A DNA stretch of 64,000 nucleotides from positions 883,621 to 947,620 of the forward strand of contig OZ246415.1 of assembly GCA_965231115.1 (NCBI GenBank), in the 5' to 3' direction. Source of the stretch: an uncultured Candidatus Peribacteria bacterium. Its GTDB lineage: Bacteria > Patescibacteriota > Gracilibacteria > BD1-5 > JAGOOR01. The notes beneath the pieces were generated by a model, which had not been told where the DNA came from, did not search any database, and saw only the letters and a program-made list of their open reading frames with translations. Position 1 is the stretch's first letter. The number at the start of each line of letters is the position of its first letter. The translations under genes and the position numbers were made by a program. Positions 7,968 through 50,094 of the stretch are shown in pieces.

Positions 7968-8042
7968 TGGTGCCAATGGGTGGAGTCGAACCGCCGACCA
8001 CAGGGTTATGAGTCCTGTGCTCTACCGCTGAGCTACATTGGC
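7968..8042 (-). tRNA. tRNA with anticodon CAT (elongator Met or Ile2-lysidine type)
   Basis: Cloverleaf with GCCAATG/CATTGGC acceptor, GCTC..GAGC D-arm, CTCATAA loop, GGTTCGACTCC T-arm and encoded CCA. One mismatch each in the anticodon and T stems. Confidence 0.75.
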
Positions 8043-9420: not shown

Positions 9421-10203
9421 ATGAATACAAATACACTCCCAAAACCAAATGTCGCAAAAAGAGAGACAACCAAACGAATCAAAATAATCGAAGATATATT
9501 ACCAGAGCTCATCAAATACAGTAAAGCAATTCTCCTTACTGGTACGATGGCTTATGGGCAAGATTTTAGCATAGACGACGAGTCCCCTATAATACTTCAG
9601 ATAATCACTGATGATGAAAACATCGAGAAAATTGGGGCATGTAAATTTTTCCAAAAATACAACACTCAGAAAGTGCGCGATGGCTTTGCATCTGATATAT
9701 TTCAAGAATTCATGTTTACTTTTATGGTGAAAGAGATAACCATTGAATGTCATTTTTGGAATGAGAAAACATGGAAAGAAATAACACGATATAAACGAGA
9801 AAAAATCACCCGACTTCGGTCTCAGACAAGAAAAATATACACAGACAGCGCCTATGGTTTTGATGGAGAAGAAATCAGGACAGAATACCCAGATTACAAA
9901 AAAGAAATTTATAACGTGGGAGAATTACCTGCCTATACTCTGAGAAATGAGACACTTTTCCTCTCTAAACCACTCTCTGATATCCTCATCTGTATAAAGC
10001 TCTACGACGAATGCGATGCAAAATCAGCCATTCGCGAATGTAAAAATATCACCAAACAAAAACTCGCAGAAACAAAGAAAAAACCAGAAATTATTTACTC
10101 TCTCTTCAATACCCTTCCAGACAAAGAGCACGTTTCTCCAGAAGTAGCAGAAAGTGTGGAAGATAGGACAATTATTTCTGAAAATACAGAAATAGATATT
10201 TAA
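9421..10203 (+). CDS. hypothetical protein (260 aa), possibly nucleotidyltransferase-fold
   Basis: Uninterrupted track ORF. Only a weak GTMAYGQDFSIDDESPI resemblance to the pol-beta NTase motif. Confidence 0.5.
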   Translation: MNTNTLPKPNVAKRETTKRIKIIEDILPELIKYSKAILLTGTMAYGQDFSIDDESPIILQIITDDENIEKIGACKFFQKYNTQKVRDGFASDIFQEFMFTFMVKEITIECHFWNEKTWKEITRYKREKITRLRSQTRKIYTDSAYGFDGEEIRTEYPDYKKEIYNVGELPAYTLRNETLFLSKPLSDILICIKLYDECDAKSAIRECKNITKQKLAETKKKPEIIYSLFNTLPDKEHVSPEVAESVEDRTIISENTEIDI

Positions 10204-10253
10204 AAAATCCAAAAATTACCATACTACCTTTATTCTTTTTTTCACTTTATTGT

Positions 10254-11453
10254 ATGTACACCCCCTCTACAAAAATTCTCGAACGCTACGCTGATGTCCT
10301 CGTCAATTTCGCCCTCGGTGGCGGGACTGGTATCAAGGCTGGTGAAGTCGTCCTTCTCTGCGTACCAGAATGTGCACGTCCCGTGCTCCAGCCTCTCCAC
10401 GACGCTGTATTGAAGTCTGGTGGCCATCCTGTAGTGGATATTATCCCTGATGGACTTCAGAGAAGTTTTTTTCAACATGCGAATGATGAGCAAATTGCCT
10501 ATCGTCCCATGAAGCGACTGCTCGGGACAGTAGAAGACTGTGATCATCGTCTCTACATGATAGCGGAACATGAGAAATACGAACTCGCTGGAATCGATGG
10601 AAACAAAGTAATGAACCGTTTCAAAACTATCAAACCATACCGTGAAGCAATGCAGAAAAAGGAAAATGAGGGAAAATTCACTTGGACTCTCGGCCTCTAT
10701 GGGACAGAAGCAATGGCATCTTTTGCTGGCATGTCTCTCGAGGAATACTGGGGAGAAATTATCAATGCCTGCTATCTCGATACAGACGAGCCGATTAAAC
10801 ACTGGCAGGAAACAGAGGCAACACTTCATACGCTCACAAAAAAACTCACTGATATGCAGATAGAATGGGTACATGTGGTCGGTGAAGACGTCGATCTCAA
10901 AGTAAAGATAGGAGAGAAAAGGAAATGGCTCGGTGGAAGTGGTCGAAATATTCCAAGCTTTGAAGTCTTCACGAGTCCAGATTGGCGTGGAACTGAGTGA
11001 TGGATTCGCTACAATATGCCGCTCTCCTACCAGAGTAACATCATCAAATGAATCCGATTAGAATTCAAAGATGGCCTCGTGGTCAATGCGACGGCAACAG
11101 AAAACGAGAAGCTCCTCAAAGAAATGATTGCGCAAAAAGATGCAGATAAAGCAGGAGAATTTTCACTCACCGATCGACGACTCTCTCGTATTACCAAATT
11201 TATGGGAGAAACGCTCTACGATGAAAATGTCGGTGGACCATTTGGCAACACCCACATCGCTCTCGGTATGGCTTATAAAGACGCTTATACTGGCGACGTC
11301 GCAAATACAACACTCGAAGAATGGGAACGTCTCGGCTACAATGACTCTGTCGTTCACACCGATATGATGAGTACGACAAACAGAACTGTTACGGCCACAC
11401 TACAAGATGGAAGCGAGAAGATTATCTACCAGAATGGAGAGTTCGTAATTTAA
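10254..11453 (+). CDS. aminopeptidase, M29 (AmpS/PepS) family
   Basis: Track ORFs 10254..11000 and 11079..11453 are in frame across two TGA. N-terminus ILERYADVLVNFALGGGTGIKAGEVVLL and C-terminal GNTHIALG..VHTDMM are typical of M29. Confidence 0.7.
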
Positions 11454-12040
11454 GCCTTTCTCATTTTTGCCATTTTCTGAAGTACTTTCTCTCGGACGGA
11501 GAGTTGTTTCAAAATATTATCTGCACGGACAGGATCCCAAAACTTACTCAAAAAAAGTTTTCCATCCGCAGGGACAGAGAGTCAGATTCTCTTTCTTGTT
11601 TCACCTAACAATATTTGAACTCTTTTCTTATTATGAGTGGGGAGTTTAATTCTCAAAACTTGATCATCAAGAGTTGTTAATATCGATCGACTCTGTGGTA
11701 AATCACCGCTATCGCCTGGGTTTACATTTCATTTTACTGCGACACGACGTGTCGTATCAAGTATAGAAGTAATAATCTGAGTTGTTTGAAATGTATGAAT
11801 AAGTGCATCCGAACATCCTATGGAGCGTAAATAATCTGTTACAGTAAATCTATCCTCATTTTTATAAGCGAAGTGGATACAGAAAGGGTTTGTCCCCTCT
11901 GGATTACAGGGGCAATTCATAATTGCCTTCCGAACAGCAGAAGCTCCTCCTTCATTCCACAGTAACTCATGTCGGTGGTCACATGGAAGAGAAGTGCCAA
12001 AATCAACTGATTCGAGAGTAATACCTTTAGAAAGACACAT
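11450..12040 (-). CDS. hypothetical protein (196 aa)
   Basis: Track ORF 11729..12040 continues through TGA at 11729 and 11582 to TAA (plus tta 11450-11452). Overlaps the aminopeptidase stop in TTAA. Confidence 0.5.
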
Positions 12041-12090
12041 ATCGCATTATAATAAAATAAATTATTAAAATGCAAGTCATTTGAGCGTCT

Positions 12091-12498
12091 CTACTTTTTG
12101 AGAAGGTCTCGGATTTCCGTGAGGAGTTCTTCTTGGGTAGGGCCTTTCGGTGAATCAGAAGCTGGTTTTTGGAGCTTTGTCATGGCTTTTACGACGAGAA
12201 AGATACAAAATGCCACAATGAGAAAATCTACTGTTGATTGGAGAAAATTTCACCAATTAAGAGATACGGCAGGAATCCCCTTTTGAATACCTGGGAGCTC
12301 TTCAATCGCATCTTTTATGATGATTTTATAATCCGTAAAATTAATACCACCAGTGAGGACAGAGATTATTGGCATGATAACATCTCCGACAAGTGAGGTA
12401 ACAATCTTTCCAAATGCTCATCCGATAACGACTCACACGGCGAGATCGACGACATTACCCCGCATTGCAAAAGCCTTAAATTCTTTAATAAATGACAT
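12091..12498 (-). CDS. mscL: large-conductance mechanosensitive channel
   Basis: Hand translation [46 protein letters not shown] at 12433-12435 and 12418-12420 encode conserved glycines. Absent from the standard-code track. Confidence 0.85.
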
Positions 12499-12617
12499 AA
12501 ATTAAGAGAGTAAAAAATAAATCGAGTAAATGATAATGAGAGGCCAGAGAAACACAAGAAAACAATATTGCATACTCTCTAAAATTACATTACTATGACG
12601 AAAGAGTATAAAAAAAT

Positions 12618-12962
12618 ATGGCAACTACTATTATATATTACGACGATCAGTGTGGGGTATGTGGAAAATGGATAACGATTCTTCAAAAATACGGATCTCT
12701 CCGATATACGAGCTACATAGGACTTTCTCAGGCGCCAAAAGAAATACAAATACTTTCAGATTCACATAAATCATGGGTCATAGAAAGAGAAAATAATTAC
12801 TATCTAGGATATGCTGGCTTTATTGAATGCATAAAAGGATCTCGATTCTTTGGGTGGTTTTGATGCATAGGAAATTATTTTCCCCTGAAACAGATAGGAA
12901 ATATCATATACAAATATATCTCTTCTCGGAGAAAAACTTGTCGCATCAAAGCGCACCAGTAA
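12618..12962 (+). CDS. thiol-disulfide oxidoreductase DCC family (DUF393)
   Basis: YYDDQCGVCGKW N-terminal CxxC motif. Track ORF 12618..12863 continues through TGA to TAA 12960-12962. Confidence 0.6.
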
Positions 12963-12967
12963 AAAGA

Positions 12968-14014
<1,047 letters not shown>

Positions 14015-14060
14015 ATCTGTATCGTACAGTGAAAAATCAGAAAGCAAATTTTGACTTCTT

Positions 14061-15236
14061 CTAAAAATCCTCTCTCTTGATCCAAAAGACAATAAATGCT
14101 ATTGCAGAAAATGCTCCAGCAATCCACATAGGTGAGATCATATGATTGATAAAATAACCTCCGAGAACTGGTGCCAGGATAGCGGTAAGACTAAAAACAG
14201 AAGAGAAATAACCACTCACCTCCCCTCGTGTATCAGACGAAGCTTTTGAGACTCATTCAGATTGAAGCACTGGCCACATAGCAATAGTAAAAAAGACCAT
14301 GGTTACCTCACAAGCGAGCCACACAAGTATATGACGACCTCCAAACTGATCATAGAACGCTGTCATCGTAAAGAGAATAATCGAAGCTATGAGGGTAATC
14401 GTAAGTATCTGACGTGGAGAAAATTTCTTGAGCCAAAATTTGCCCAGAAGAAAACCCTGACAAAAAGCCATAAAAACTCCCACTCACATGAGAACATGAC
14501 TAATCTGAGGGATAGAGAGATGGTAAAATCTATCCATATACAGACTGTACGAATTTCGGTAGACTCCAGCACCGAGACCAACTAAAAGTGCGACCCAGAG
14601 ATAGAGAGATATATGACCCCGTATGAGTGCGCCAAAAACTGGAAACGAGCTCTTTTTTACAAAAGTTGTAATAATACTTGGTTTATGTGTTTCTGGGAGA
14701 AAGAACGTGATAAAAAGAGCATTGAGGAAGCTAATAATACCGGTAACAAAAAATGGTACAGCATAACCCCATTGAACGAGAAAACCGCCGAGAAAAGGCC
14801 CCACAATCATAGAAAGACCAAACATCATCCCAAAAATACCAAAATACTGTGCCCTTTCTTTTTCATCCTTCGATATATCAGAAAGTATCGCCTGAGCAAT
14901 AGTCATATTCCCCGCTGTCACTCCATCGATGACACGACCGACAAGAACCCACCAGAAGTTTGGAGCAAAAGCCGTAATAATCCAGCCAAGGGCAGAACCA
15001 AAAACACTCAGGGTCAGTATTTTTTTGCGACCGATACGATCAGAGAGTCGACCGAGAAGGGGTGATGCGACAAAACTACAAAGAGCATAAATACCACCCA
15101 TGATACCTATCCATATTGGACTGGCAGCAAATTGCGTCTCAAATATGGGAAGGAGTGGGAAAATAATAGTGAGACCGATAAGATCGAGAGCAATCGTCGT
15201 AAAAATAGCGGCTTTGAGTCAGCGAGAAGAATTCAT
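14061..15236 (-). CDS. MFS transporter (DHA1/TetA-like)
   Basis: GRLSDRIGRKK motif and about 12 TM segments. Track ORFs 14253..14483 and 14484..15101 are joined in frame by TGA. ATG at 15236. Confidence 0.75.
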
Positions 15237-15271
15237 AAATGAGACGATACGAAAAAAGTAAAAATAACAAC

Positions 15272-15853
15272 TTAGTTTGTGTGTCACTCAGACTGCCATA
15301 CTTTGATGGATTCGACAGGATGCACGAGCATGATGATATTAAGTGTGAGATTATCACGAACCCAGAGAAGACAGCCAATTTCAAAGACAATAATTATAGC
15401 AATGCTTACCCAAATTTTCGATATACGAGCCACGAGAAAACCCAAAGCCATCATGCCCACATCAGAAACAGAGTTCAGAATACTATCTCAGACATATCCG
15501 AGAGCAATAGTTGCCTCGCGATATCTATTTATGATGATGGGGGAATTTTCGAGAAGTTCCCATCCCCCCTCGATACCGAGAGCAAAAAGAAACCTATATT
15601 TCAGAGGAAGCCTACGAGCGACGAGCCAGAGAAATCCATAAAACAGAATACCGTGAATGATGTGTGAAAAAGAATATGCATCAGCAACTCTCTGAGAGTT
15701 TTCACTACTCCAGATATCACCATCCCAAAAACCAAATCTACCATCAGGACCGAGGAGGGAACGTCCACTTAAATATTCTATGACAGCCACCAAAGAAAAC
15801 ACAATTATTACGGAAATAATTGAGAAAAGATGTTTTTGTAAAAAAGATTTCAT
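15272..15853 (-). CDS. DUF2585-family membrane protein
   Basis: Track ORF 15488..15853 continues through TGA as GDSILNSVSD.. to TAA (plus tta 15272-15274). Confidence 0.55.
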
Positions 15854-15864
15854 AAAAAAAATAA

Positions 15865-16734
15865 TTATTTAATTCTCTCAGCCCCATAGACTCCCATCAA
15901 AAGATCGATATCTTTTTGGCTCTTTATCAAAAGATCGATATTTTTCTCTTCTGCTGCACAGAGTAATGCTGCACCGAGCGGATCGAGACCAACTTTTTTG
16001 ATATATTCGACGAGACCAGCAAAGTCTTTTATAAAACAGTGCCCCCCTGCGCCTCTCCCCTGATGTTCGAGGATTCATGAAGCATGGATGACATCGAGAT
16101 GACTCTTACCAATACGCGGATCAGATCCTATACCTTCTTTGATCACATCCCAACTACTTCCAGCATTTTCAGCCAAATCATAGAGAATATTAGCATAAAT
16201 CACCTTGAGAGTGAGAAAAGAATTACTGCCATATTTGATAAATTCTGCCTCACGAGAAGTACAGACGATATTTACAGGAGACGCTGGAAGAATATCGATA
16301 ATTTGTTGTGCTCGAGCCCTAAAGTCCTCGCTATCTACGGGATAACCGACGATATTTCTTGTCGGATTGGCGACATCATAGGCAGCCGTTTTTTCAGCAA
16401 GAAATTCTGGAGAATGAAAAACAAAACGATCAGAATAGAGCGCTTGAATCTTTTCGCATGTACCCGGCATCATGGTCGACTTGATAACTGCGGATTTACC
16501 AGGTCAAACTAATCCGACAACTTCACGGAGGATGTCATAATTAAAACCTTCAGGCGTAGTTGGTGTGGGAACACTGATAAATACAATATCACACTCGGAT
16601 AATCTCCGACGATTGTCAGGGGTATCAAGACGCTTCGAATAACGGAAGATATCATACCCTCTCGCCTCAAAATCATCAGCCATATTTTTCCCAATAAATC
16701 CTTGTCCAATAAATCCTATTAATAACTGGGACAT
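15865..16734 (-). CDS. short UDP-glucose/GDP-mannose dehydrogenase-family protein (289 aa)
   Basis: IGFIGQGFIGKNMA Rossmann motif and the catalytic GGHCFIKD motif. Track ORFs 16504.. and 16075..16473 plus a tail are joined across TGA. The ORF ends about 57 aa after the catalytic Cys. Confidence 0.7.
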
Positions 16735-16836
16735 AAAAAAATAACAAAAAGTAATACAAGAATTATTGAGATTTGTCTCTATTTGCAAACAAGAATAAAA
16801 AAATCCTGACAAACGTCAGGATTTTCGATTTTCAAA

Positions 16837-16924
16837 TGGCGGAGGGACTGAGATTCGAACTCAGGGTGACTTGCGCCACGACAGTTTTCAAGACTGTTGC
16901 ATTAAACCGCTCTGCCATCCCTCC
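16837..16924 (-). tRNA. tRNA-Ser (anticodon TGA)
   Basis: GGAGGGA acceptor, CTTGAAA anticodon loop, long variable arm, GGTTCGAATC T-arm and encoded CCA. Confidence 0.85.
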
Positions 16925-16943
16925 ATACTTAAAATGTGAGGGC

Positions 16944-16971
16944 ATTGTAGAAAAAAGTCATCCTCTGTCAA
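16944..16971 (-). promoter_or_regulatory. putative promoter of tRNA-Ser
   Basis: Minus strand reads TTGACA-16 nt-TACAATGC just upstream of the tRNA. Confidence 0.45.
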
Positions 16972-17112
16972 AGAAATATTTTATGGTAAGACTCTCTAGG
17001 GTACAATGCGCTATCGGAAAGTAAAGATAGGAGCATTTTTCTCGTCTTGCGCTTCAGGTCTCCGAAGTTATACTTACGCCCGTCCTTTATATCCTAATAA
17101 CCCAAAATTTCT

Positions 17113-17943
17113 ATGGACAAACACAGTCATCAAAGTGTCTACGCGGCCATAGCAGCGAGCACAATCGTTTCACTCCTCGGTACCTACTTTATGGTACAGC
17201 TTCCAAAGATAGAAGAAGTAGGCGGACGTGCAAACTACAAAATCTACCAAAACATGATCAGCAGTCCAAAATATGCTGAGAATGTAAAAAACTCTCTTGA
17301 ATCAAATCAGAAAGTCATGAATGGAGAGCAACCAACTCAGGGTAATAATCAGCAACCAACAGAACCAAAAGCAACTGGTAGCCTCACTCAAGATGATATC
17401 GGAGCAGTTCTCAAGGATACGTACCTCAAGGGCAATAAAGATGCTCAAATTCTCTGGGTCGAATACTCAGACCTTGAGTGTCCTTTCTGTAAGCGTCTCC
17501 ACGATTCTGGTGCTATCAAAAATCTCGAAGCAAAATATGGAGATAAGATGGCGTTCGTATTCAAACACTATCCACTCCCCTTCCATCCTACAGCACTTCC
17601 TGCAGCTGAGTCAGCTGAGTGTGTCGGTGAAATCGGCGGATCTGCTAAGTACTATGCTTTTGTAGAATGAGTATTTGCAAAAGGAACGCCAACACAAGAT
17701 GTTATTGATGGAGTTCTCAAGACTATTGGTGTTGATGCAAAAAAAGTAAAAACATGTGCTGATAGTGCAAAATTCAAGGACAAGATCAACGCAAGTCAGT
17801 CAGAAGGTTCTAGCAAATTCGGTGTCAATGGTACTCCTGGAAATGTCCTCATCAATACTAAAACTGGTAAATATGAAGTCGTATCAGGTGCCCAACCAGA
17901 AGCAAACTTTGATGCTGCTATAGGTCGTCTCCTCGCAGAATAG
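17113..17943 (+). CDS. membrane-anchored DsbA-like thiol:disulfide oxidoreductase
   Basis: N-terminal TM segment and CPFC active site. Track ORF 17113..17670 continues through TGA to TAG 17941-17943. Confidence 0.75.
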
Positions 17944-38689: not shown

Positions 38690-40189
38690 CTACTCGCCTC
38701 CTTTGACAAAGGTGTATGCAGTACCCTGTTTTCCGGCTCGCGCTGTACGACCGATACGGTGAACATAATCTTCACGAGTCGCTGGTTCATCGAAATTGAT
38801 GACATGCGTGACATCAGGAATATCGAGACCTCGAGCCGCTACATCAGTAGCGATAAGGATTTTTATTTTATTCGTGCGGAAGTTGTTGGTAATTCTCTGA
38901 CGGAGATTCTGAGATTTATCACCATGGAGAGCATCGACAGGCGCCCCGAGATCACGGAGATCATCAGAAACTCGGTCTGCCTCTCGCTTTGTACGAGTAA
39001 AGATGAGATACTTCCCTTCTTTATCCTTTTGGAGGAGATCATGAAGTTTCTGTTTTTTGTTTATCCCTGTCGTATAAAATACTACTTCTTGTGCGACACG
39101 AGAACCAACTGGTTCTGATTTGATCGTTACTTGAGTAGGGTTTTTGAGAAATGAATGAACATGACGCTCGATATCACGAGACATCGTCGCAGAGAAAAGC
39201 ACTGTCTGCTTATCTTCTGGGAGCATAGCCATGATTTCCTTGATATCATTGATGAAACCCATGTCGAGCATACGGTCAAACTCATCGAGGACGATGTGTC
39301 CATAATCAGAGAAATCAATCACGCCACGATCATAGAGATCCTTGAGACGACCTGGAGTCGCGACGATACAGTGAACACCACGCTTTATATCCATTATCTG
39401 ATTACGAGCATTAGCACCACCGACGACAACCGTCGAACGGAGGAAAGTCCCCTGTGTTATCCAACGAAATTCTGTCTGTACCTGATCCGCGAGTTCACGC
39501 GTTGGGACCATGACAAGGAGACGTTTTTTTACACCAGCGAGCATACGATGCACGATAGGGATGAGAAACGCTGCTGTCTTACCAGAACCAGTATTTGCGA
39601 GACCGAGCATATCAGAACCGTCCATGATGGCCTGAAGAGTCTTTTCCTGGATTTCTGTAGGCTTTTCATAGCCTTTTTTATCAATATTTTTGATAACATG
39701 CTCATCAAGAGCGAAATCATGGAATTTCTTTGTCACTTCGTACGGAGTGAATTTGAGCTCACCCGAATCGTCTGTCGGTGTAAACATATACTGTTTATAG
39801 CTTGGCTGCGGAGGCATACGACGACCGCCTGAGCGACCACCACCACCGAAACCACCACGCCCTCCAAATGAAGGCTTCCCTCCAAATGACGAACCACGAC
39901 CGCCGAAACTTGGACGACCACCAGATGATGGACGACCACCACCGAAACCACCACGTGCAGGGGCACCAAAAGTCTTGCGTTCACCACCAAAGGCAGGACG
40001 CTCACTTCGTGCACCATCACGACTTGGTGCATGACCAGGGCCGAAGCCTTTTTGTTCAGCACCACGACCACCCGAAAAGCCTCCGGATCTCGGAGCTCGC
40101 TCTTCGCGATTGTACTTCCCACGTGCACCTCGACTACCGGTAGGTTTACCAGTTTCAAAATCCTCTAACCGCTTCGAAAAATCGAACAT
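38690..40189 (-). CDS. DEAD-box RNA helicase with N-terminal Gly/Arg-rich region
   Basis: Uninterrupted 499-aa ORF with AxTGSGKT, PTRELA, LDEFD (DEAD variant), SAT and HRIGRTARAG motifs. About 125 N-terminal residues are GGR/FGG repeats. Confidence 0.85.
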   Translation of the reverse strand: MFDFSKRLEDFETGKPTGSRGARGKYNREERAPRSGGFSGGRGAEQKGFGPGHAPSRDGARSERPAFGGERKTFGAPARGGFGGGRPSSGGRPSFGGRGSSFGGKPSFGGRGGFGGGGRSGGRRMPPQPSYKQYMFTPTDDSGELKFTPYEVTKKFHDFALDEHVIKNIDKKGYEKPTEIQEKTLQAIMDGSDMLGLANTGSGKTAAFLIPIVHRMLAGVKKRLLVMVPTRELADQVQTEFRWITQGTFLRSTVVVGGANARNQIMDIKRGVHCIVATPGRLKDLYDRGVIDFSDYGHIVLDEFDRMLDMGFINDIKEIMAMLPEDKQTVLFSATMSRDIERHVHSFLKNPTQVTIKSEPVGSRVAQEVVFYTTGINKKQKLHDLLQKDKEGKYLIFTRTKREADRVSDDLRDLGAPVDALHGDKSQNLRQRITNNFRTNKIKILIATDVAARGLDIPDVTHVINFDEPATREDYVHRIGRTARAGKQGTAYTFVKGGE

Positions 40190-40450: not shown

Positions 40451-40477
40451 TAAAAAATGACCCTCCTGTGGGGTCAT
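40451..40477 (-). terminator. hairpin terminator downstream of the low-GC operon
   Basis: atgaccc / gggtcat stem with a 7-nt loop and a T-run on the minus strand. Confidence 0.5.
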
Positions 40478-40574
40478 ACTATAATGGAATAAATAGTTAT
40501 TGGTTGACCTAAAGGTCTAGAACCATTTGGTGATCAGAAATGGGACAAATGGCACACCTAAAAAGGTCATTATC

Positions 40575-41537
40575 TTATCAATTAATTATGGGCTCAATGA
40601 CAGATGTTAATATATATCAGTATTCTCAATCTATACCTCATTTTCTTACCCATTTCTTTGTTCATACCAATAGAAGAAAAAAATTAATCCACTCCGTGTT
40701 AATTTTATATCAAGTCACATTTTCATACTCGTGGATTAATGTTTCTAAGACTCCATTTTCTCTAAGAGAAGGATTCCAAGTAATCATGAGAGCAAGCTCT
40801 TCTTCTGGAAATCACCACCGTATTGTTCACCCAAAATCTATAAGTCGAGAAACATCTCAATTAAACAAAACATTTCATTGATGAATATCTCCATGTAAAA
40901 GCCTTACATCTTTTGATTTTTTTTCTGGCAAATTTTTATATATTTGTGCTAATTTTAATAAAATTAAATCTATTAGATTTCATGTTTTTCAGGATTTTTG
41001 CTTAATCTCTGCTGTTACATTTGTAACATAATCATCTAAATTATTATGCGGACCTATACCCTGAGTATTTAAATAGGCATATCCTGGTGGTTTATCTTGC
41101 ACTACATTGTGGACTTGAGCAATATTTGTTCATAGACTTACTAACTGTAGTTTTCCTGGAACGTAATCGTCTCACATTGATTTCCATGTCTTGCCTTCAA
41201 CAAGGTCTTGTAGTACCCAATAATAGATCCGCTGATCATTTTCATAAACACCCATTGAGTATATATGCGGGATTAATCATGGATATTTATTTTGTATAAA
41301 TAATTCTAATTCTGTTTCTTTATGCATTCTCTCTGTCAATGAAATTTTAAGTGCAAATTTTATTCCATTAATATCTACTTCTACACAACTTCTATTTCTT
41401 CCAGATCATATAAACCGCCAATTAATTCAATTTATTCACATAATACCATCAACTCTTGACTGCATATTTGATCATAGAGTGACACTATTAACTATGTTGA
41501 TAATTTCTCCAGAAAATACCGGATCTAAAACCTCCAT
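40575..41537 (-). CDS. aminoglycoside/choline-kinase-like phosphotransferase (APH family)
   Basis: Codon-by-codon check: open from ATG 41537 to TAA (plus tta 40575-40577) with 19 in-frame TGA. LLHGDIHQ-G-NVLFN-G-DVSRLIDFGG catalytic/DFG-like motif. Confidence 0.65.
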
Positions 41538-41568
41538 AATGTTGTAAATTAATTATCTAAGTATTTTT

Positions 41569-42693
41569 CTATTTGTTGATTGATAGTCTTGATTGTGAAT
41601 TAATAGAGGATCATAGTTGATAAATCCTGTCATGTACATCATCAATAGACGTAGCATCCCTAAATTTTACAAAAAAATCAACAGTCTTATATCATGTGGG
41701 AGTAGAATAAAGCTCTCTTATATCAAATCACAAATTATGAAATAACCCCATAGCATTTTTTAGAGTGCCACTTTTTTGAGGAATTTTGATCAATCACGTA
41801 AATTCAGAGTTATTTTCGTTAGAGGACAATAATTTAAATCAAAAATTAAGAGGGTCTAAATCTTCTAAATCATTATCGTAATGATCCCGTTTTTTAGTAT
41901 ATGTATAAATAAATTCCATTTCATCGATTCATTTTTTTATGGAAACAATTCCTAGTATACTTATACCAGACTCATGCAATTCTGTTAATTTCTGATGCAG
42001 GGATCATGGTACATCTGGAATATTCATTATTTCACAATTCAATTCATCTGACAAGGCTCATGATGGGACAATATCTTCTGGATATTCAGAGTTATTTGCC
42101 CCCATTAGTAAGAAATATGTAAAATTATTTCTAGGTCAAAATTCCCTCGATAATATATCAACAGACTCATCGTCAATACTCGGGATGTATTGATGTGGAG
42201 CAATCGCTCATGCATATGAATCTAATTTAGGAGAGTTTTTTTGAGCATGAATATGTTCGATAGCTCAAGATGTTGAACCAGTATTAATATGATTTAGTTT
42301 TTTTCAGAACATAGCAACTTGTGAATCTGATGTTTGGTAAAAAGACTGCACGTGTGTTCACAGGTCATGAATATTTCAAATAGGAGTTCATTTTTTACAA
42401 ACAAGCCAATATTCAATTTTCATCTTAGTTACTGCAAGTATTTTTAGTTGAGACATAGAATTACCAATTCCCTCAAGTGTATCTTTTACAGACGATCAAA
42501 AAACATTATAAAATGGAATTAAAGCCAATCAGTTTGGAGTTTCAGAGTTCAATAAGGACTCAACTGCAAGCTTATTGGAAGAGCATAATTGATAGCATGA
42601 CTTTTTATCCAATCATAAATCATTAGCATGTTGAACAGTATTTGTGGCTCTAGAAGGAGTGCCTGGATTACCAAGCAAGAAAAGTTTGTGCAT
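41569..42693 (-). CDS. divergent prephenate dehydratase-like protein (PDT plus ACT domains)
   Basis: Codon-by-codon check: open from ATG 42693 to TAG (plus cta 41569-41571) with 18 in-frame TGA. FLLGNPGTPS, LIPFYNVFGSSV, NNFTYFLL (TRF-motif position). ACT-like IPQKSGTLKNAMGLFHNLGFDIRELYSTPT..VDFFV. Confidence 0.55.
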
Positions 42694-42698
42694 AAAAA

Positions 42699-43394
42699 TT
42701 AGGTAGAAGAAATTACGCGTTCGGCTGTAGCTTTAGCTAAAATGCTCATGGTGTCAAAAAGTGAAAATTCATAAAAGTTTGTGCATATAAGCTGTAAATC
42801 AGTACAAGCCAGAAGTACATCTTTTACTTGTTTACTTCTCATGGTTTCAACTATTTCATGTATAACTTGTTGGTTATTTTGAGAAGAAATATTATTTACG
42901 ATATTATATATAACTAAATCTAGCTTTGATTGCAAATCTGGATCAATTTTTACAATATTGATAGATTTTTGGAGTAGTGGCAATTCATACAGTTGATATT
43001 TTGAAGTAGCAGTTGTAGAGAGTAATCAAATCAATGTAATTCAAATTGCAGCAAGATAGTTTACAGTTTCATCTATAATACTCACAACAGGTATGGAAAC
43101 AGCTCTACGTATTTGCTCAATTAATACATGAACTGAATTACAAGGGATTACAATAAAATCTGCTCCACCTTTTTCCAAATTTTTCGCTCCTTCTATCAAG
43201 TAAGGCAAATATTCAGTTATTCATTCACCTGTTAAAAGAAAATTTTTCTCTAAATCAAGTGGCAATGCCGTATTCCATATAAGTATTGGAGGTCTAGTAT
43301 CAATCTTATTTTGTGAAAAAATATTAATTAATTCTAAATAAAATTTAGCAGTTGTATCTGGTCAAAGTCATCAAAGGACGCCTATAGTTTTCAT
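42699..43394 (-). CDS. aspartate/glutamate-type amino acid racemase
   Basis: MKTIGVL-G-GL-G-PDTTAKFY N-terminus. Two catalytic Cys contexts, VIPCNSVH and LLACTDL. In frame with track ORF 42699..42983. Confidence 0.7.
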
Positions 43395-43397
43395 AAA

Positions 43398-45941
43398 TTA
43401 TTTAATAATAAATTGGATAAATTTTCATTTTCCGTATTTCAAAACAACTTTGTCTCAAACTTTGAAATCAAACACAGTATTCATGCCTGTAATCTTTTCG
43501 TTATTCACCGATATTGCTCATCATTGAACCCTTCTCCGTATTTCAGATCCAGAAAGAGATACATTATTTTCTTTCACAAGAGATAATAAGCTCATAACAT
43601 TAAATCATTCCTCTAAATAAGTTATCTCCATAGTTACAATATCGCTAGGAGCCTGTTTTTTAGAAAAGACTTGCTCAAATTCTCTCTCTGCAGATTTAAC
43701 CATATCATCTTCATAAAAAAGACCAAGTATGCATCTAGCCAGCATTTTTTTAACGAGAATAGGGTTAATTAATCACGATTTAACAGCTTTTTCAATGAAT
43801 TCTACTTCATCCTCCGAGGTGGAAACAACATAAGAAAAATAAGTTAACATCTGCTCATCGTTCATGGACATTATTTTTCAATAGTCCTTATCAACTTTGT
43901 GTTGTAAGTTTTCTTCTGGCTTCATGCCAACAAAGTTATTGTATGTTTTACTCATCTTTAGCCCATCAAACCCATTAAGTAGGGGTGTCGTAATAACTGC
44001 TTGGGCAGATTGTCCCTGACTAGCTTGTAAATCCCTTCATCTATAGAGATTAAACAATTGATCTTGCCCTCCGAGTTCCACATCTGAATTTAAAACTACC
44101 GAGTCCCATCATTGAAGCAAAGGGTAGATAAATTCTCAAATAGCTATTGAGCCGCCATCTTTCATTCTTTCTTTGAATTGTTCTTTTTGAAGCATTTGTC
44201 CGATTTTTCATTTCATCGCTAGGCCTAGTAAATCTGCTGCAGTCCAAGTTCCATACCAGTCCTTGTTATATACTATTTTTGCAGAACCTGAGTCTAGATC
44301 AATAACTTTACGAACTTGAAGAATATAGGTCTCAATATTTTTGTTAATTTGTTCCTCACTCAACACCTCTCTTGTGCTTTTTTTATCGGGATCACCTATT
44401 GTGGCGGTAAAAGTACCGATTAAAAAACGAATTTCATGTCAAAGTGCTTGGAAAAGGTGTAATTTTTTTAATGGAATTAAGTGACCAATATGTATTTCAT
44501 CTCATGTCGGGTCTATTCACAACTTAATAATTAATTTTTTTCAGGCTTTTATCTTTTGAGCTAATTCTGACTCCCCTATAAAATCAGCAGTACCTCTTTT
44601 GATAAGCTCAATTTGCCCCTCGGGAGTAGATTTCTTAACATCAAAATCATGTGGCAAAAACCTTCTTCACTTTATCTCATGCTCTATATTCTCCAGCTCC
44701 CCGGAGATATTTATTTCATCCATTTTTAAGTGCTTATATTTTCATGTGTGCGATGCCGCTACAGATGGCTCACTATTTCTTTCTAAATTCAAATCTGTAT
44801 TCATACTTCAGAGAAGATCTTTCTTTTCTAATCAAGTAATTTTTAGGTTTACATCACTCACAAAATGTAGATATTCCTCTGGAGAAATATTACAAATTTT
44901 ACAAATTTGTTCAAGTTGAACCTGTCTATCTTTAGAAAATCTATCAAATGCTTGAGGTGAAACACCTTGTCTTTCAAATAATATATCTCATTTTGGATCC
45001 TCATAGTACGGAGGTTTCAAATACATATCCGATGTTAAATGGACATGATTAGGATTTCGTGCTTGTCAAAGCAATGTTGTTCTAATTAGTACTCGAAGAT
45101 GATTAAAATTTCTCTCAGCTTTTCATCATAATGAGATATAGTAAGGATTATCGTATTGGTGATGTGCTTTATTTATGCCTTTATCATGAAATAAGTCCTG
45201 TAATCAGTAAATGTGACTTACTGCATATTTTAACGCATTTTTTTTACCTTCTTCTCATCCATGTTTTTCTCACATTTTCCTAAATACTGCAATTAAGTTT
45301 TGTACTTCTTGTTCATTCATTGAGTTTAAATTTTGCTCAATTTGATCAATTTGCTCCTTAACTTCATCATCCATCAAAAGGTAATCAAAATCAACTATAT
45401 CAACAAGATCAGGAAAATACTTTTTTATAAAACTCTTTAAAATAAATATAGTTTTTAAGCTTTGTATTTGAGTTTTTTCTGCATCGTATCCATTAAATTC
45501 TATCGCTTCAGACATTCATAAATGGATTCTTAGTCTTGAGGAGCAATTCGGATGGTGTTTATTAATAGTAGTATGAACATGTCGCAAGTATCCTAGTCAT
45601 CCTAGAATATAGCTTGGTAAAACTATGCTTGTAGAACTTTGAATTCCTCAAATACCCACATTCATAATAGTATTGACTTGTTTTCATTGAATAACATCCC
45701 TCGATAAATTAAATAAATCAGGAATAGTCGCTTCAGATATGTGTGTATAATTCAAACCATGGCCTATTCTAATCAAATCTAGAAATATATTCCTATGCGC
45801 CAAAGATTCAAATTCCAATCAATCATATGCAAGGTTATCTTTAGTAGGATCCTCAAGTATTCTCAAGACACGACCATGCGTTAAGGTTGGATTTTCATGA
45901 ATACTTTTTCATGAGCTTGTCGTTTCTTGTAAACTAAGCAT
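43398..45941 (-). CDS. tyrS: tyrosyl-tRNA synthetase fused to an unassigned N-terminal extension of about 435 aa (847 aa)
   Basis: Whole ORF checked codon by codon: no TAA/TAG between ATG 45941 and TAA (plus tta 43398-43400), with 32 in-frame TGA. HIGH motif (EIHIGHLIPL) at about residue 483. ELGGQDQ, YPLLQ-G-WD, KMSKT and an S4-like C-terminus SGSEIRRRVQGGAISVNNEKI. A TAA lies two codons upstream of the ATG. Confidence 0.75.
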
Positions 45942-46027
45942 AAGGAATTATTTAAAATAAAACATGAGAATAATATTGAAAGAATAAAAGAAAAAAACTG
46001 AATTTATATGAAATAAATAATAATAAA

Positions 46028-46057
46028 ATTATTGATATATTGAATATTATCAATAAT
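46028..46057. promoter_or_regulatory. perfect 10-bp inverted repeat (candidate operator) in a divergent intergenic region
   Basis: attattgata (46028-46037) and tatcaataat (46048-46057), separated by the near-palindromic spacer tattgaatat. Lies between ATG 45941 (minus) and ATG 46086 (plus). Confidence 0.4.
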
Positions 46058-46085
46058 ATTTTTCATATTGTTTCATTTTATTCCT

Positions 46086-47831
46086 ATGAATACAGCCGAG
46101 TTACAAGAATTACATCCAGAAGAATATAGAGACTTCTTCTCTCATAATATGATGGTTTTTTCCCTACCCTTTTGTATGGTATGGATGGGGAGCTCAGATG
46201 AAACAAGCGTAATACACATAAAACAATCTATACCTCTCAGAATTTTTATATGAATACGAAAAGTCAGTTCCCCCTGAATCCATCTCAAAAATTTTCGGTC
46301 ATATTCACATTTTCGAGAAAAATTTTTTACTCGTAAAATGCCTGATTATCTCCCTCCAGCAGATATGTATATCAGACAATTGCTGAAGGAAATGCCAATA
46401 AATGAAGGAATAGAGTTATCAATACTTTCCGAATGCTGAAGAACTTTAGGCTTTGGTACACATACGCTAGTGTTATTTAGTATTTTTCTAGCACGAAAAT
46501 GGCTCGATGATGATAGTATTTTTCAAAAAATGAGTGAAGAATCTATAAAAGCACCTCATGAAGCTATCTGACCAAATACATTTTTATATGAATTGCTCAT
46601 AGAACATCAAAAAATCCTAAAAAAAATACAGCAAGATTCAGGTTTCATGATTCTCGCAACTTGCCTCCTTGGCTGAGCCTACCCTATTGTCTCATACACA
46701 TCAGCTAGAAAAGATACATATAATATTTTTGCTTTTTCTCTTAAAGATTTTCTGGGTGAACATGCACCTGAGTATCCTCATTGTAGCTATGAGCAATCTA
46801 TTTATTTTCCTGGACTCCCATATCTCTATGAGAACTATATAAGATCCAACAATCCAGACAAAATTAATATCGATACACCAAGAAAAATAATACATGAAGT
46901 TACGGCTAAGCGCCATAAGAATTATACCGAAGAACAAATCCCTGATTTTCTATGTTCTTCATCGGACCTATCTCATGAAAATTTCACAAATATACTCATG
47001 AGGCTCAAGACCTATAAAAGTATTCAAATATTCCAAGCAATGATACAGGCACATAAACATGAATGATCTCAGAAAAGCTCACTTGAATTGATAACATTAT
47101 TAGAACAAAGGATCTCTCTAGATACCCTAAAAACCAATGTTGATGAAGATATGAAACAATGTTATCATGATATTTGGGAAAAATTTCATAATAAATCCCA
47201 TCCTGCCATTTTCCCAAATATTACACTTTGAAGTTGAGGCTGTTTTAACATTATCAGCCCTCCGATTGTTCATCAAGATATTATGCGTGAGTTACCAACT
47301 TCAATGAGAGATAATTATCCCGATGGGGTAACTGTTTATAGGAGTTGGAAAGATGGTTTGGAGTTAAATGGTTTTACATTAGAACAAAATATAAGTCAAA
47401 AACATTATCATAAGCTCACAGAAAGGAATATCGGCTTATGTACCGTCTCTAACGAAGTATATGTTATACCTCAGAGTGGTTTAGAAGCGTTTTCTAAGGG
47501 AAAAGTTATTTTTGATCTTTCAAATCAGAAAATATATGCCGACTGACATACAGTAACAAGTGCACAAATACCGTCACAGAAGGCTACAATTGAGATAATT
47601 AAGCTTCTTCTTGATGCACCAAATAACATTCTCAAAAATTCGGAACTTCCACGATCAGTCTATAGCAGTATGAAGAGCGAAATGAATTGAAAAATAATCA
47701 GCCCGATTAATAAAATTTGTCACGAGGTTACTGGTGAATTATTCCCTCTTTTACTTGAAGGCAGTCTCAGTAAATTTACACTACAACTTACACTACAACA
47801 AGATAAATATCTTGGTTTTTTTACTCGTTAA
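46086..47831 (+). CDS. fusion protein: GHMP-kinase-like N-terminal region plus OmpR/PhoB-type winged-helix DNA-binding C-terminus (581 aa)
   Basis: Codon-by-codon check: open from ATG 46086 to TAA 47829 with 10 in-frame TGA. FSLPFCMVWMGSSDET (GHMP motif I-like), SEC-G-RTLGFGTHT (motif II-like). C-terminal VIFDLSNQKIYADGHTVTSAQIPSQKATIEIIKLLL..ILKNSEL..KIISPINKI resembles Trans_reg_C. Confidence 0.5.
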
Positions 47832-47913
47832 CATCAATCGTTTTCTCGGAAATAATCTCCACACCTTTTTGCCTGGTTCAGAATATAATCTGTATACAGT
47901 GTCTTAAAAAGAA

Positions 47914-48507
47914 CTATTCCAAAGATTTTTCTATCTCAAGAAGCGTTTCAAATTCCTCTATCATTGGATGATTCCAGGTTTCTCGAAGCATCTTCAGAAC
48001 ATTTTCTTCAAACCAAATTTTTTTATCCTTTCATTTATTAAAAAGCTTCCAAATATCTTTTCAGTGATCATTGTAAGCTATAAATAAAGCTTCGAGATTG
48101 TGAATTTTATCAGCCACAGCAATTGCTTTTGCTCACTCTGATCCATTCCTGACAGTTTCAATATATTTAAGTTTTTTTTCTTCCCAAGGAAGACTCGGGT
48201 CATTTGAAACTGCCTTTACTAATTCGTACACTTCTTCTCCGAGTTCCTCACGGAAACTATCTACAGTATAGTTCGTGTCTTCCAGGACATCATGAGTTAG
48301 AGCAGAGGCTAGTATGGTATCTGAAAAGCCATATTTTGCTAGCCTTAGAGCAATCATGAAAGGATGTGTCATGAAAGGAACTTCCTCTCATTTCCGTTTC
48401 TGGTTAGCATGAGCTTTAACGGCAAGCCGAGTGGCTTTTTCAAGAATTCATATATCAAAATCAGGTTTTTTAATCTTCTTTTCTGCTTTTTTTAGATTTT
48501 TTTTCAT
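47914..48507 (-). CDS. HD-domain hydrolase, SpoT/RelA-hydrolase (small alarmone hydrolase)-like
   Basis: HANQKRK..PFMTHP and ALTHDVLEDT motifs. ATG 48507 is in frame with track ORF 48133..48372 and continues through TGA to TAG (plus cta 47914-47916). Confidence 0.65.
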
Positions 48508-48618
48508 ACGATAAATTTTATTTAATAAAGCCCTCTTGTCACGATTGATATTAGTTTCAATAATCTTGAAGCATCTAAGCGTCTCTCGCACTAATCAATC
48601 ACAACACAATCATAATTG

Positions 48619-49221
48619 TTATCGTGCTGCTCCCGAGCTTTTAGATAGACCATATTCCCAAGGATTAATAGTTTTATAATCGTAGAGGTAGAGGACTTTG
48701 TGTTTTTTCGGATCTTTTTGACGAGAATTATAGGCTTCAATTTCTGCTTCTATATTAGGCACACTGTCTTCTCTGCTAACCCCGATATAGATATTTTTAA
48801 CAGGACTCTGAATTATGGCTTTCAAGATGTGTTCATCGTGTTTCTTGAGAACGGTACCGAATATAAGAAGATCTCCTCAAATAGCTCAAAGAGATCTGTA
48901 ACAATGATTGAGGTAGCCATTATGGATGATTTTTTTCATCTTTTGCTCACTCTCTCACTCTGAAACAAAAACAGGATAGATGTTGTTCTCGAGATTGCCT
49001 CGTATTTGTGTTACCAGATCGACTCAAGTCTTGCTATATGTCTTTTTGATTATTTCGTCTCCTGCATCGAAGATATGGAGTGCTCCATGAAGAAAGTGCA
49101 GTTCGAAGCTTTTTGAATTCCAATAAACAACAAATCACTCATGGGAACTCTCTTCAGTTTCTCAGAAACCGTCTTGGCGATAGGGTACAAAAAAGGGCGG
49201 TCGAAACGCGCTTTCATGAGA
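48619..49221 (-). pseudogene. probable 5'-truncated remnant of a SIR2-like/DUF4917-like gene
   Basis: The frame is open for 200 codons below an in-frame TAG (plus cta 49222-49224). No ATG/GTG/TTG occurs in the first 94 codons, although they contain protein-like LHFLHGALHIFD and FVSEGESEQK motifs. The first ATG (48939) would give only 106 aa. Family call is from memory of the motif pattern. Confidence 0.4.
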
Positions 49222-49842: not shown

Positions 49843-49917
49843 TGGTTGGGGATGAGGGATTCGAACCCCCGCGTGGCGGAGTCAAAGTCCGCTGCCTTAC
49901 CGCTTGGCTAATCCCCA
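49843..49917 (-). tRNA. tRNA-Gln (anticodon TTG)
   Basis: TGGGGAT/ATCCCCA acceptor, GCCAAGCGGTAAGGC D-arm, CTTTGAC loop, GGTTCGAATCC T-arm and encoded CCA. Confidence 0.85.
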
Positions 49918-49983
49918 ACGTACGCCTGAGTTTAGAGAAAAATCTGTTTTTGCAAATGCTGTTTTCCAAATAAAATATTTTTT

Positions 49984-50011
49984 TTGACAAATAGTATCCT
50001 CTCTCTACAAT
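49984..50011 (+). promoter_or_regulatory. putative promoter of tRNA-Asn
   Basis: TTGACA-16 nt-TACAATGC, 8 nt upstream of the tRNA 5' end. Confidence 0.5.
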
Positions 50012-50019
50012 GCCCCAGT

Positions 50020-50094
50020 TCCTCGGTAGCTCAGTGGTAGAGCAGTTGGCTGTTAACCAATTGGTCGTAGGTTCGAATCCTACCCGGGGAGCCA
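50020..50094 (+). tRNA. tRNA-Asn (anticodon GTT)
   Basis: TCCTCGG/CCGGGGA acceptor, GCTCAGTGGTAGAGC D-arm, CTGTTAA loop, GGTTCGAATCC T-arm and encoded CCA. Confidence 0.85.

Follow-up and report, generated by a model that had tools for sequence, protein, structure and literature searches.

A predicted class Ic synthetase-like domain fused to tyrosyl-tRNA synthetase in a Candidatus Peribacteria bacterium

Background

Synthetase paralogues and appended domains are a main route by which translation enzymes acquire new functions. To our knowledge, the only well-studied non-synthetase relatives of the subclass formed by tyrosyl- and tryptophanyl-tRNA synthetase (TyrRS and TrpRS) are the cyclodipeptide synthases (CDPSs), which act on aminoacyl-tRNA rather than on ATP and an amino acid, and the inactive half of the trypanosomatid TyrRS. 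Here we describe a fusion gene found in 64,000 nucleotides of DNA from an uncultured Candidatus Peribacteria bacterium (assembly GCA_965231115.1, contig OZ246415.1, positions 883,621 to 947,620; this whole stretch is called the window below). The gene encodes a TyrRS preceded by an N-terminal extension that is predicted to contain another class Ic synthetase-like Rossmann domain, which has diverged extremely and lacks the HIGH and KMSKS signatures. We refer to this domain as the N-domain, to homologous proteins by P numbers and to their genomic loci by L numbers.

The closest structural precedent is the double-length TyrRS of Leishmania and Trypanosoma (PDB 3p0j, 5usf; Larson et al. 2011, cited in PMC5370408). 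The trypanosomatid enzyme, like the fusion described here, carries two class Ic folds per chain, one competent and the other without catalytic signatures; both of its halves are recognizable as TyrRS, each has an anticodon-binding domain, and together they form an intramolecular pseudo-dimer that splits catalysis and anticodon recognition between the halves. Mukai, Reynolds, Crnkovic and Soll (2017, Life 7:8; PMC5370408) described ORF1, a protein predicted to be class-I-synthetase-like that always lies beside a non-canonical TrpRS in operons from CPR (candidate phyla radiation) bacteria and DPANN archaea. These operons are headed by trpR or follow tRNA-Trp, the encoded proteins are Trp-free, and ORF1 is paired with an archaeal-type TrpRS-A and a tRNA-Trp carrying A73. 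Its authors reported HIGH- and KMSKS-like motifs and no Rossmann fold, and mentioned neither a racemase nor a fusion to TyrRS (PMC5370408).

In the literature that we searched there was no TyrRS fusion of the N-domain, no link to a racemase and no follow-up of ORF1, and searches on the TyrRS of Gracilibacteria, on PDB 9dh4 ('PIsnA') and on the TrpRS/racemase cluster returned nothing relevant. New in the present analysis is that the extension can be placed in a fold, in a family that includes free-standing proteins, and in a gene neighbourhood that is conserved.

Results

A protein family with a predicted class Ic fold

Pfam and NCBIfam have no match in the N-terminal extension. A word-indexed homologue search with the N-terminal 437 residues was also empty, and this single sequence had no match when run against GTDB genomes and JGI metagenomes. 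An exhaustive HMMER search did return 44 relatives, so the earlier nulls reflect limited sensitivity. An earlier model-made reading of the DNA, which used the letters and their open reading frames alone (the sequence-only reading), had stated that the extension matches nothing it could name; this stands for Pfam and NCBIfam and falls for the exhaustive search. About 35 homologues of the N-domain are free-standing proteins from standard-code organisms, about 390 residues in size (360 to 450, with a few longer). None of the ten family members scanned has a Pfam domain in the N-domain region, and the family profile searched against PDB sequences gave noise only. A closer family alignment (A6) found nothing among GTDB species representatives and seven loci in JGI and ENA metagenomes. 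Every named member is annotated as 'hypothetical protein' (Gracilibacteria MCT4617541.1, Peregrinibacteria PIR55517.1 and one Gonapodya record). The Gonapodya record, annotated in the chytrid Gonapodya sp. JEL0774 (P0147, KAJ3331065.1), sits on a 4.4-kb contig and is either contamination or a eukaryotic member.

Fold models were built on two homologues, the free-standing P0125 and the 93%-identical fused orthologue P0165, the latter with Trp at TGA positions. The AlphaFold2 model of P0125, for which a 38-sequence alignment including fused domains was used, reached a predicted local distance difference test score (pLDDT) of 93.3 and a predicted template modelling score (pTM) of 0.92. The top 50 PDB matches to this model in Foldseek consist only of TyrRS (archaeal, eukaryotic and bacterial), TrpRS, the Leishmania double-length TyrRS and CDPSs (6ez3, 5mlp and 9j61), with a probability of 1.0 for all top hits; the best is 2cyb, with an E-value of 1.2e-5 and a TMt of 0.54. 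The check by AlphaFold and Foldseek that had been proposed for the extension thus recovers, on homologues, a class Ic synthetase-like fold. In the model of full-length P0165 (pLDDT 87.9, pTM 0.58), the N-domain part has a pLDDT of about 90 and the same order of strands and helices as P0125. The 'coiled-coil-like middle' of the sequence-only reading corresponds to the long helices of the fold. We hold the assignment of fold, family and fusion with high confidence.

Family members share the motifs G.GGS...P..R.PAYI, P..R.F.A......N and F...F.P, and further by MG.KHGG..G..AL.YAAAH, GG.P(E/Q)..FN and GK.P.YY.A..GD. The N-domain of the window shows G.GG, KHGG, Y..AH, GG.AE..FN and KPPYY..GD, and the His-rich strings that had been remarked in the extension are located at residues 48, 120, 258 and 296. 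Most family-invariant residues are retained in fused N-domains (in P0125 numbering, G.GG, Y124, N163, KHG, Y255, H259, GG285/286, F292-N293, P324, Y326, Y327, D333 and F370). Three others, R120, D201 and D354, are conserved in 28 to 31 of 31 free-standing members and missing from all fused N-domains, where they are replaced by V/L/T/C, L/I/S and Q, respectively; judged by these residues, the fused N-domain may have kept binding while its chemistry was changed or lost. At the position of HIGH, free-standing members have P..R and the fusion has T/S..V; at the position of KMSKS, the family has GK.P.YY and the fusion LKPPYY. The loop after strand 1 reads G.GGS in most free-standing members and GIGGIQ in the fused clade. 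Trp is scarce, with at most one residue in 17 of 34 family members, no TGG codon in the N-domain of the window and no Trp in five racemases. As a possible starvation signature this composition is suggestive but weak, given that Trp is scarce in the background of the genomes too and that the proteins share ancestry.

The fusion is a conserved coding gene

Standard-code calling of open reading frames breaks up genes across the whole window, which indicates that the host is TGA-recoded. The frame of the fusion gene runs from ATG 45941 through 847 sense codons with no TAA or TAG and 32 in-frame TGA codons, and its stop-free stretch opens merely two codons 5' of that ATG. This recount upholds the sequence-only reading, which had seen a single 847-residue polypeptide under code 25, closed by TAA. 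Aligned with 48 standard-code TyrRS sequences, the TyrRS half has TGA codons at invariant Gly columns, for example the G of G-x-DPT, and in the N-domain they coincide with Gly columns conserved in 29 to 31 of 31 standard-code homologues. Since these columns call for Gly, rather than Trp or a stop, the alignments identify the host as a bacterium that reads TGA as glycine (code 25).

Within the N-terminal 406 codons there is no TAA or TAG in frame, against 25 in each of the two other frames; none of 20,000 shuffles was stop-free (analytic P ~1.4e-12). The guanine-plus-cytosine (GC) content by codon position is 0.42/0.30/0.20, and the ratio of nonsynonymous to synonymous substitution rates (dN/dS) for the N-terminal part is 0.13, as under purifying selection. 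The N-terminal 400 or so residues of the fusion are coding.

The same architecture, 810 to 861 residues long, is kept in at least eight independent assemblies. A search with the TyrRS part found P0027, which is cut by a contig end at 645 residues and shares N-terminal homology with the window protein (phmmer 8e-89). A further six fusions, all full-length, came from the exhaustive HMMER search and from a profile search: P0165 and P0166 (847 residues each), P0121 (843), P0167 (852), P0122 (861) and P0123 (810). These orthologues come from independent Logan, ENA and JGI assemblies and were all translated with Trp at TGA. The N-terminal parts of the orthologues are 93, 79, 54, 46, 40, 33 and 29% identical to that of the window protein, and the TyrRS part is always better conserved, at 51 to 70% where it was measured separately. 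Given the conserved frame in independent assemblies and the dN/dS of 0.13, an assembly artefact or a dead relic is excluded. The possibility raised earlier, that a sequencing or assembly error had created a false fusion, thus falls away, and the suggested search for the same architecture in other TGA-recoded sequences has found it.

The in-frame internal Met that had been pointed out at ATG 44723 is residue 407. It is retained solely in the closest relatives of the window protein and is not conserved in P0027, P0122 or P0123; P0001, the closest relative that lacks the fusion (55% identical), begins at the corresponding position. Neither ATG 45941 nor ATG 44723 is preceded by a convincing ribosome-binding site or a clear Shine-Dalgarno sequence. 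Two segments of the fusion protein are predicted to be disordered, or are of low confidence, in the orthologue model. Residues 1 to 40 have pLDDT values of 33 to 61 and are variable among orthologues; linker residues 387 to 400 fall below 50, and the linker differs in both length and sequence from one orthologue to another. The protein stretch across the linker includes NLERNSEPSVAASHTGK.

The C-terminal half is a complete TyrRS

The C-terminal part is a genuine TyrRS, as had been recognized from its motifs. It scores 299.1 bits with TIGR00234 (tyrS; cut-off 113.8), aligning residues 445-846 with model positions 9-405 of 406, and matches Pfam tRNA-synt_1b (PF00579) at 3.4e-61 over residues 467-759. 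It comprises a clade-specific N-terminal helix, a Rossmann catalytic domain, a helical anticodon-binding domain and an S4-like C-terminal domain, about 440 residues in all, where the sequence-only reading had counted about 410. That reading had placed HIGH at about residue 483; it begins at residue 484, and GGQDQ and KMSKT, also correctly called, begin at 624 and 662. The Pfam matches to SYY_C-terminal and S4 are weak. The anticodon-binding and S4-like domains are further borne out by the best Foldseek match of the P0165 model, the full-length, tRNA-bound Thermus thermophilus TyrRS (9sdf/1h3e), with which about 444 columns align at an E-value of 7e-30, a TMt of 0.75-0.78 and 30% identity.

The tyrosine-pocket motifs IGDPDKK, EFIYPLLQGWDS and GGQDQ, read from the sequence, are intact; we take their pocket residues to be the equivalents of D78, Y169, Q173, D176 and Q195 of Bacillus stearothermophilus TyrRS. 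Every column that is invariant in the 48 TyrRS sequences is retained in this clade, and comparison with the orthologue in L006 gives a dN/dS of 0.057 for this half. There is no second tyrS within the 64-kb window. The TyrRS half is canonical and presumably charges tRNA-Tyr.

Gene neighbourhoods of free-standing members

Racemases homologous to that encoded next to the fusion in the window adjoin free-standing N-domain genes. An Asp/Glu-type racemase is adjacent to the N-domain gene or in its cluster at 8 of 13 loci (L008, L009, L013, L014, L015, L016, L017 and L021), and a bacterial-type TrpRS is adjacent at five (L008, L013, L015, L019 and L020). The gene order in L008 is trpR-like gene, N-domain, racemase, TrpRS; in L019 it is TrpRS, tRNA-Trp, N-domain, aminotransferase, ELFV dehydrogenase, aminotransferase. 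The tRNA-Trp of L019 (349-424) has a CCA anticodon, G73 and an encoded CCA end, and lies 21 nucleotides 5' of the N-domain start.

L015 and L020 also have a chorismate-mutase/methyltransferase gene, the L013 cluster has a PrnB-like protein, and in L011 an MR_MLE-family enzyme is encoded two genes downstream of the N-domain. Long-form members of 610 to 654 residues, with an extra N-terminal region of about 250 residues without known fold, overlap the start of an Aminotran_3 gene in L012 (7001-10091, Gracilibacteria) and L022 (7001-12184, Peregrinibacteria); downstream of the Aminotran_3 gene, L022 encodes a YbaK-type tRNA_edit deacylase as well as a class I/II aminotransferase. A few kilobases from the N-domain cluster of L013 there are SIR2_2 and PycTM genes of defence-system type (1308-2866), which are probably unrelated to it.

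Operon and surroundings of the fusion gene

The fusion gene heads a tightly packed minus-strand operon in which it is followed by the racemase, a prephenate-dehydratase (PDT)-like gene, an APH-family kinase and a hairpin (Table 1). The racemase gene begins 3 nucleotides past the fusion stop and encodes both catalytic Cys motifs (PCNS and ACTD); the cut-off of TIGR00035 is 93 bits. The PDT-like gene starts 5 nucleotides after the racemase and scores far under NCBIfam equivalog cut-offs. A terminator-like hairpin after the kinase gene (40457-40477) was the one useful result of a scan for promoters and terminators that was otherwise uninformative (48 sites versus 45.7 expected). The arrangement of the window recurs around P0167 (L003-L005) and P0166 (L006-L007), with the racemase in the same position and the PDT-like gene conserved in L003-L007, and the APH kinase conserved in L006 and L007.

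Table 1. Coordinates of the fusion gene, its parts and its neighbours within the window
Feature	Position	Strand	Basis
Whole gene: fusion protein, 847 residues, code 25	43398..45941	-	TAA stop 43398-43400
N-terminal ~44 residues, poorly conserved, predicted disordered/low-confidence	45810..45941	-	Model, orthologues
N-domain, residues ~45-386, predicted diverged class Ic synthetase-like Rossmann domain	44784..45809	-	Homology, models, dN/dS
Linker, residues 387-406, ERNSEPSVAASHTGKYKHLK, predicted disordered	44724..44783	-	Orthologue model
Complete bacterial TyrRS, residues 407-847, from internal ATG 44723	43401..44723	-	TIGR00234, Pfam, Foldseek
HIGH signature, residues 484-487	44481..44492	-	Read from sequence
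KMSKT (KMSKS-type) signature, residues 662-666	43944..43958	-	Read from sequence
Asp/Glu-type amino-acid racemase, 231 residues	42699..43394	-	Pfam Asp_Glu_race 5e-29; TIGR00035 136 bits
Diverged prephenate-dehydratase-like plus ACT domain, 374 residues	41569..42693	-	Pfam PDT 8e-11, ACT 6e-5
APH-family small-molecule or protein kinase, 320 residues, last operon gene	40575..41537	-	Pfam APH 1.6e-12
Divergent 581-residue protein, no family	46086..47831	+	Pfam no match; homologues in L002-L007

The divergently transcribed 581-residue protein has no Pfam match even at E <= 5; a by-eye idea that it combines a GHMP-kinase-like domain with a winged-helix tail found no support in Pfam at that threshold and was dropped. 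With its homologues it forms a type of protein of about 580 to 610 residues, without Pfam match, whose gene always stands divergent to this TyrRS clade, be the TyrRS fused (L003-L007, for example L003 8097-9845 and L006 4081-5907) or unfused like P0001 of L002 (6504-8264; phmmer 1.5e-78). It may be a regulator of the cluster or a further enzyme. In L002, which belongs to another TGA-recoded organism, P0001 is the first gene of a shikimate/aromatic operon (9742-17219) comprising shikimate kinase (SKI), EPSP synthase, chorismate mutase (CM_2), an aminotransferase, PDH/PDT and chorismate synthase. This late-shikimate/aromatic operon is apparently complete, which is unusual in that candidate-phyla bacteria are normally without amino-acid biosynthesis.

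Several features of the wider region were noted in passing. The cluster at 40500-48600 of the window (kinase, PDT-like gene, racemase, fusion, 581-residue gene and HD_4) has a GC content of 28-36% against 39-50% in its flanks, and it is rich in TGA (Gly) codons, with 16-19 per ~350 codons against none in the adjacent 499-residue DEAD-box helicase gene; L003 and L006 show the same GC dip over the same genes. The pattern suggests an island that was transferred long ago, or else a module with weak expression. The DEAD-box helicase (38690-40189, minus strand) has a Gly/Arg/Ser-rich N-terminal tail of about 130 residues in which all Gly codons are GGN and none is TGA, so that its codon usage contrasts sharply with that of the island next to it. 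Beside the cluster, a small protein of HD_4 type (RelA/SpoT hydrolase-like) is encoded that may be a small alarmone hydrolase (window 47914-48507, minus strand; L006 3414-4016). Further out, a truncated DUF4917-like open reading frame (48619-49221, minus strand) is followed by tRNA-Gln (minus strand) and tRNA-Asn (plus strand) at 49843-50094; here, at its high-coordinate edge, the low-GC region may have an island boundary. Elsewhere in the window there are two genes for tRNA-Met (CAT), separated by 1 kb (6842-6916 and 7968-8042, minus strand).

Discussion

A proposed partner domain of aromatic-amino-acid synthetases

Since the N-domain is fused to TyrRS and its free-standing kin lie beside TrpRS, it probably acts with an aromatic-amino-acid synthetase; the fusion serves as a 'Rosetta stone', an indication that the two work physically together. 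Our best guess is that the N-domain acts on tyrosine or Tyr-tRNA as a partner domain without aminoacylating activity, and that it would not activate amino acids itself. Its ligand would instead be the aromatic amino acid, or else the aminoacyl end of tRNA that the partner synthetase has charged; the pocket-forming elements that it retains are the Y-x3-H helix, the GG..FN strand-helix and the P-x-YY loop. We propose such a ligand because HIGH and KMSKS are absent, these elements are kept, and a tRNA gene, a deacylase and a trpR-like regulator occur in the operons along with enzymes making aromatic amino acids from D-forms, keto acids or prephenate. Together with the translationally coupled racemase, the N-domain would constitute a module whose task is to supply L-tyrosine for charging or to police it. 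Because TyrRS and TrpRS are synthetases known to mischarge D-enantiomers, the likeliest activity would be stereochemical quality control, or the passing on of substrate or product, acting in cis. Having lost R120, D201 and D354, the fused form may keep binding without the full chemistry.

To the combined statement, tandem class Ic folds plus an aromatic amino-acid role for the N-domain, we assign a probability of about 0.5; the specific mechanism sketched above is tentative and rather unlikely to be right in its particulars. Several points weigh against this reading. The TM-scores of the N-domain in Foldseek are moderate, at 0.45-0.54, and the models are of the homologues P0125 and P0165, not of the window protein itself. 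Alignment of the N-domain profile with a TyrRS profile by hhalign is not significant (E-value 0.57), a result that, with the empty Pfam and NCBIfam searches, agrees with the earlier description of a large extension beyond assignment by sequence; the sole block aligned pairs GGrPE..FN of the N-domain with GGTDQ.FN of TyrRS, as expected from the fold. As the PDB profile search and hhalign were both null, the fold assignment rests on AlphaFold2 and Foldseek. The proposed ligand is deduced solely from the fold and the gene neighbourhood, and the context sample is small, with 13 informative loci of which some are mutually related. NCBIfam names the racemase of the window generically, as 'amino acid racemase', with no substrate indicated. 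Finally, in L022, where a YbaK-type deacylase is encoded, the N-domain need not itself be the deacylase.

Alternative explanations

Among the competing accounts, the one we regard as unlikely rather than remote is that the N-domain is a metabolic paralogue comparable to HisZ or AsnA, which, as a sensor or an enzyme for aromatic amino acids, would regulate or catalyse a step of their salvage. Its partners would then be the racemase, the PDT-like protein and the aminotransferases, and the TyrRS fusion would serve co-expression or channelling only. The repeated linkage to chorismate mutase, PDT-like genes, class I/II and class III aminotransferases, ELFV dehydrogenase and MR_MLE is consistent with this, as are the placement of an unfused TyrRS of the same clade inside the shikimate operon of L002, the trpR-like gene upstream in L008 and the Trp-poor composition of N-domains and racemases. 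Against it, the adjacent tRNA-Trp of L019 and YbaK-type deacylase of L022 point to chemistry at the level of tRNA, as does the covalent fusion to a synthetase, and no nucleotide-binding signature is left for an adenylate-forming reaction.

That both halves share the class Ic fold, that Leishmania double-TyrRS chains are among the N-domain matches and that catalytic-type residues are lost in the fused clade would also suit a covalent pseudo-dimer. The N-domain would then stand in for the second subunit of the obligate TyrRS dimer, as a structural or tRNA-binding half with no chemistry, and free-standing members would heterodimerize with TrpRS; the same idea was proposed for ORF1 and TrpRS-A by Mukai et al. 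(PMC5370408). We consider this distinctly unlikely. The low pTM of the full-length P0165 model, a monomer for which few fused sequences were available, goes with no confident inter-domain packing and a disordered linker. In a Foldseek search with that model no PDB entry spans both halves, and the Leishmania enzyme lies outside the top 50. Bacterial TyrRS uses its anticodon-binding and S4-like domains across a true homodimer, and the TyrRS half keeps both domains of its own. Moreover, the strongest gene linkage of the family is to the racemase (8 of the 13 loci, versus 5 for a synthetase), and many family-invariant polar residues are retained.

Two further accounts place the N-domain at the aminoacyl end of tRNA. 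In one, which has only a slim chance of being correct, the domain holds the tRNA acceptor end and presents the aminoacyl-tRNA to the co-encoded racemase or pyridoxal-phosphate enzyme, and the amino acid would be epimerized or converted while esterified to tRNA, as a 'chiral repair' or a tRNA-dependent aromatic pathway. SepRS/SepCysS and GatCAB follow an analogous logic of conversion at the level of aminoacyl-tRNA. If true, this would explain why the unrelated families Asp/Glu racemase, Aminotran_3 and MR_MLE alternate beside the N-domain, why the operons include a tRNA gene and a YbaK deacylase, and for what reason genome-reduced code-25 bacteria have the N-domain fused to TyrRS.

In the other, to which we give little credence, the N-domain is a CDPS-like transferase that takes Tyr (or Trp) off the aminoacyl-tRNA which its partner synthetase produces and passes it to an acceptor, perhaps a D-amino acid supplied by the racemase, yielding a small molecule or an envelope component. 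CDPS structures are among the significant fold matches, HIGH and KMSKS are absent as in CDPSs, and in most of the free-standing members the Gly-rich loop that follows strand 1 contains a Ser; a dedicated synthetase gene is adjacent, and such a neighbour is typical of aminoacyl-tRNA-dependent pathways. There is no Pfam CDPS match, however, the N-domain is larger than CDPSs by about 100-150 residues, and the tailoring enzymes typical of CDPS clusters are not conserved. In the fused clade, moreover, both the loop Ser and R120 are missing.

Finally, the N-terminal region could be non-functional, with translation only of a 441-residue TyrRS from ATG 44723, or an artefact or decaying relic, a view that gains from the position of Met407 at the domain boundary, the equivalent start of P0001 and the lack of a clear Shine-Dalgarno sequence at either ATG, yet is highly improbable given the uninterrupted frame in at least eight assemblies, the dN/dS and strong codon-position periodicity, the 0 versus 25 stops, the retained family-invariant residues, the absence of Met407 from three orthologues and the fact that the N-domain has no stop of its own, so that any translation of it gives the fusion.

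Comparison with known systems

A partner domain that occurs both free-standing and fused to a synthetase has parallels in AlaX and AlaRS, in YbaK/ProX and the INS domain of ProRS, and in the DTD-like domain of archaeal ThrRS. These differ from the N-domain in having unrelated folds and a demonstrated deacylase activity; we know of no editing or accessory domain built on a class Ic catalytic fold so far. HisZ and AsnA, recruited to amino-acid metabolism, keep a synthetase catalytic fold for binding amino acids, as the N-domain may do, and like it they are encoded among biosynthetic genes, but their folds are class II and neither is fused to a working synthetase.

CDPSs share with the N-domain a class Ic fold without HIGH and KMSKS, and the structural matches are significant. 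They differ in family, in the residues that are conserved and in length (about 230-300 residues, against about 340-390 for the N-domain), and their genes are found with tailoring oxidases or P450s, whereas the context of the N-domain is a racemase and a synthetase. Unlike the trypanosomatid TyrRS, the fusion has its extra half at the N-terminus, where it is unrecognizable by sequence and belongs to a separate family with free-standing members; this half is joined by a disordered linker to a TyrRS complete in itself, and no pseudo-dimer is predicted. The present finding defines a further unannotated branch of the TyrRS/TrpRS fold, fused to TyrRS in several TGA-recoded candidate-phyla bacteria; its gene neighbours connect this branch with amino-acid racemases, with TrpRS, with a tRNA-Trp gene and with an editing factor. 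The family merits a Pfam/InterPro model, and it offers a testable handle on how bacteria with reduced genomes and a dependence on amino acids secure the aromatic ones for translation or police them, D-enantiomers perhaps included.

The free-standing loci come closest to the ORF1 operons. L008, L019, L013 and L015 resemble these in having TrpRS, trpR or tRNA-Trp and low Trp. Unlike ORF1, the N-domain partners a bacterial-type TrpRS and a tRNA-Trp with G73, and has a racemase as its commonest neighbour; its model is a Rossmann fold, without HIGH and KMSKS, in a comparison of the two families made by description only. A second testable handle offered by the N-domain is what 'ORF1', the TrpRS partner of 2017, might do.

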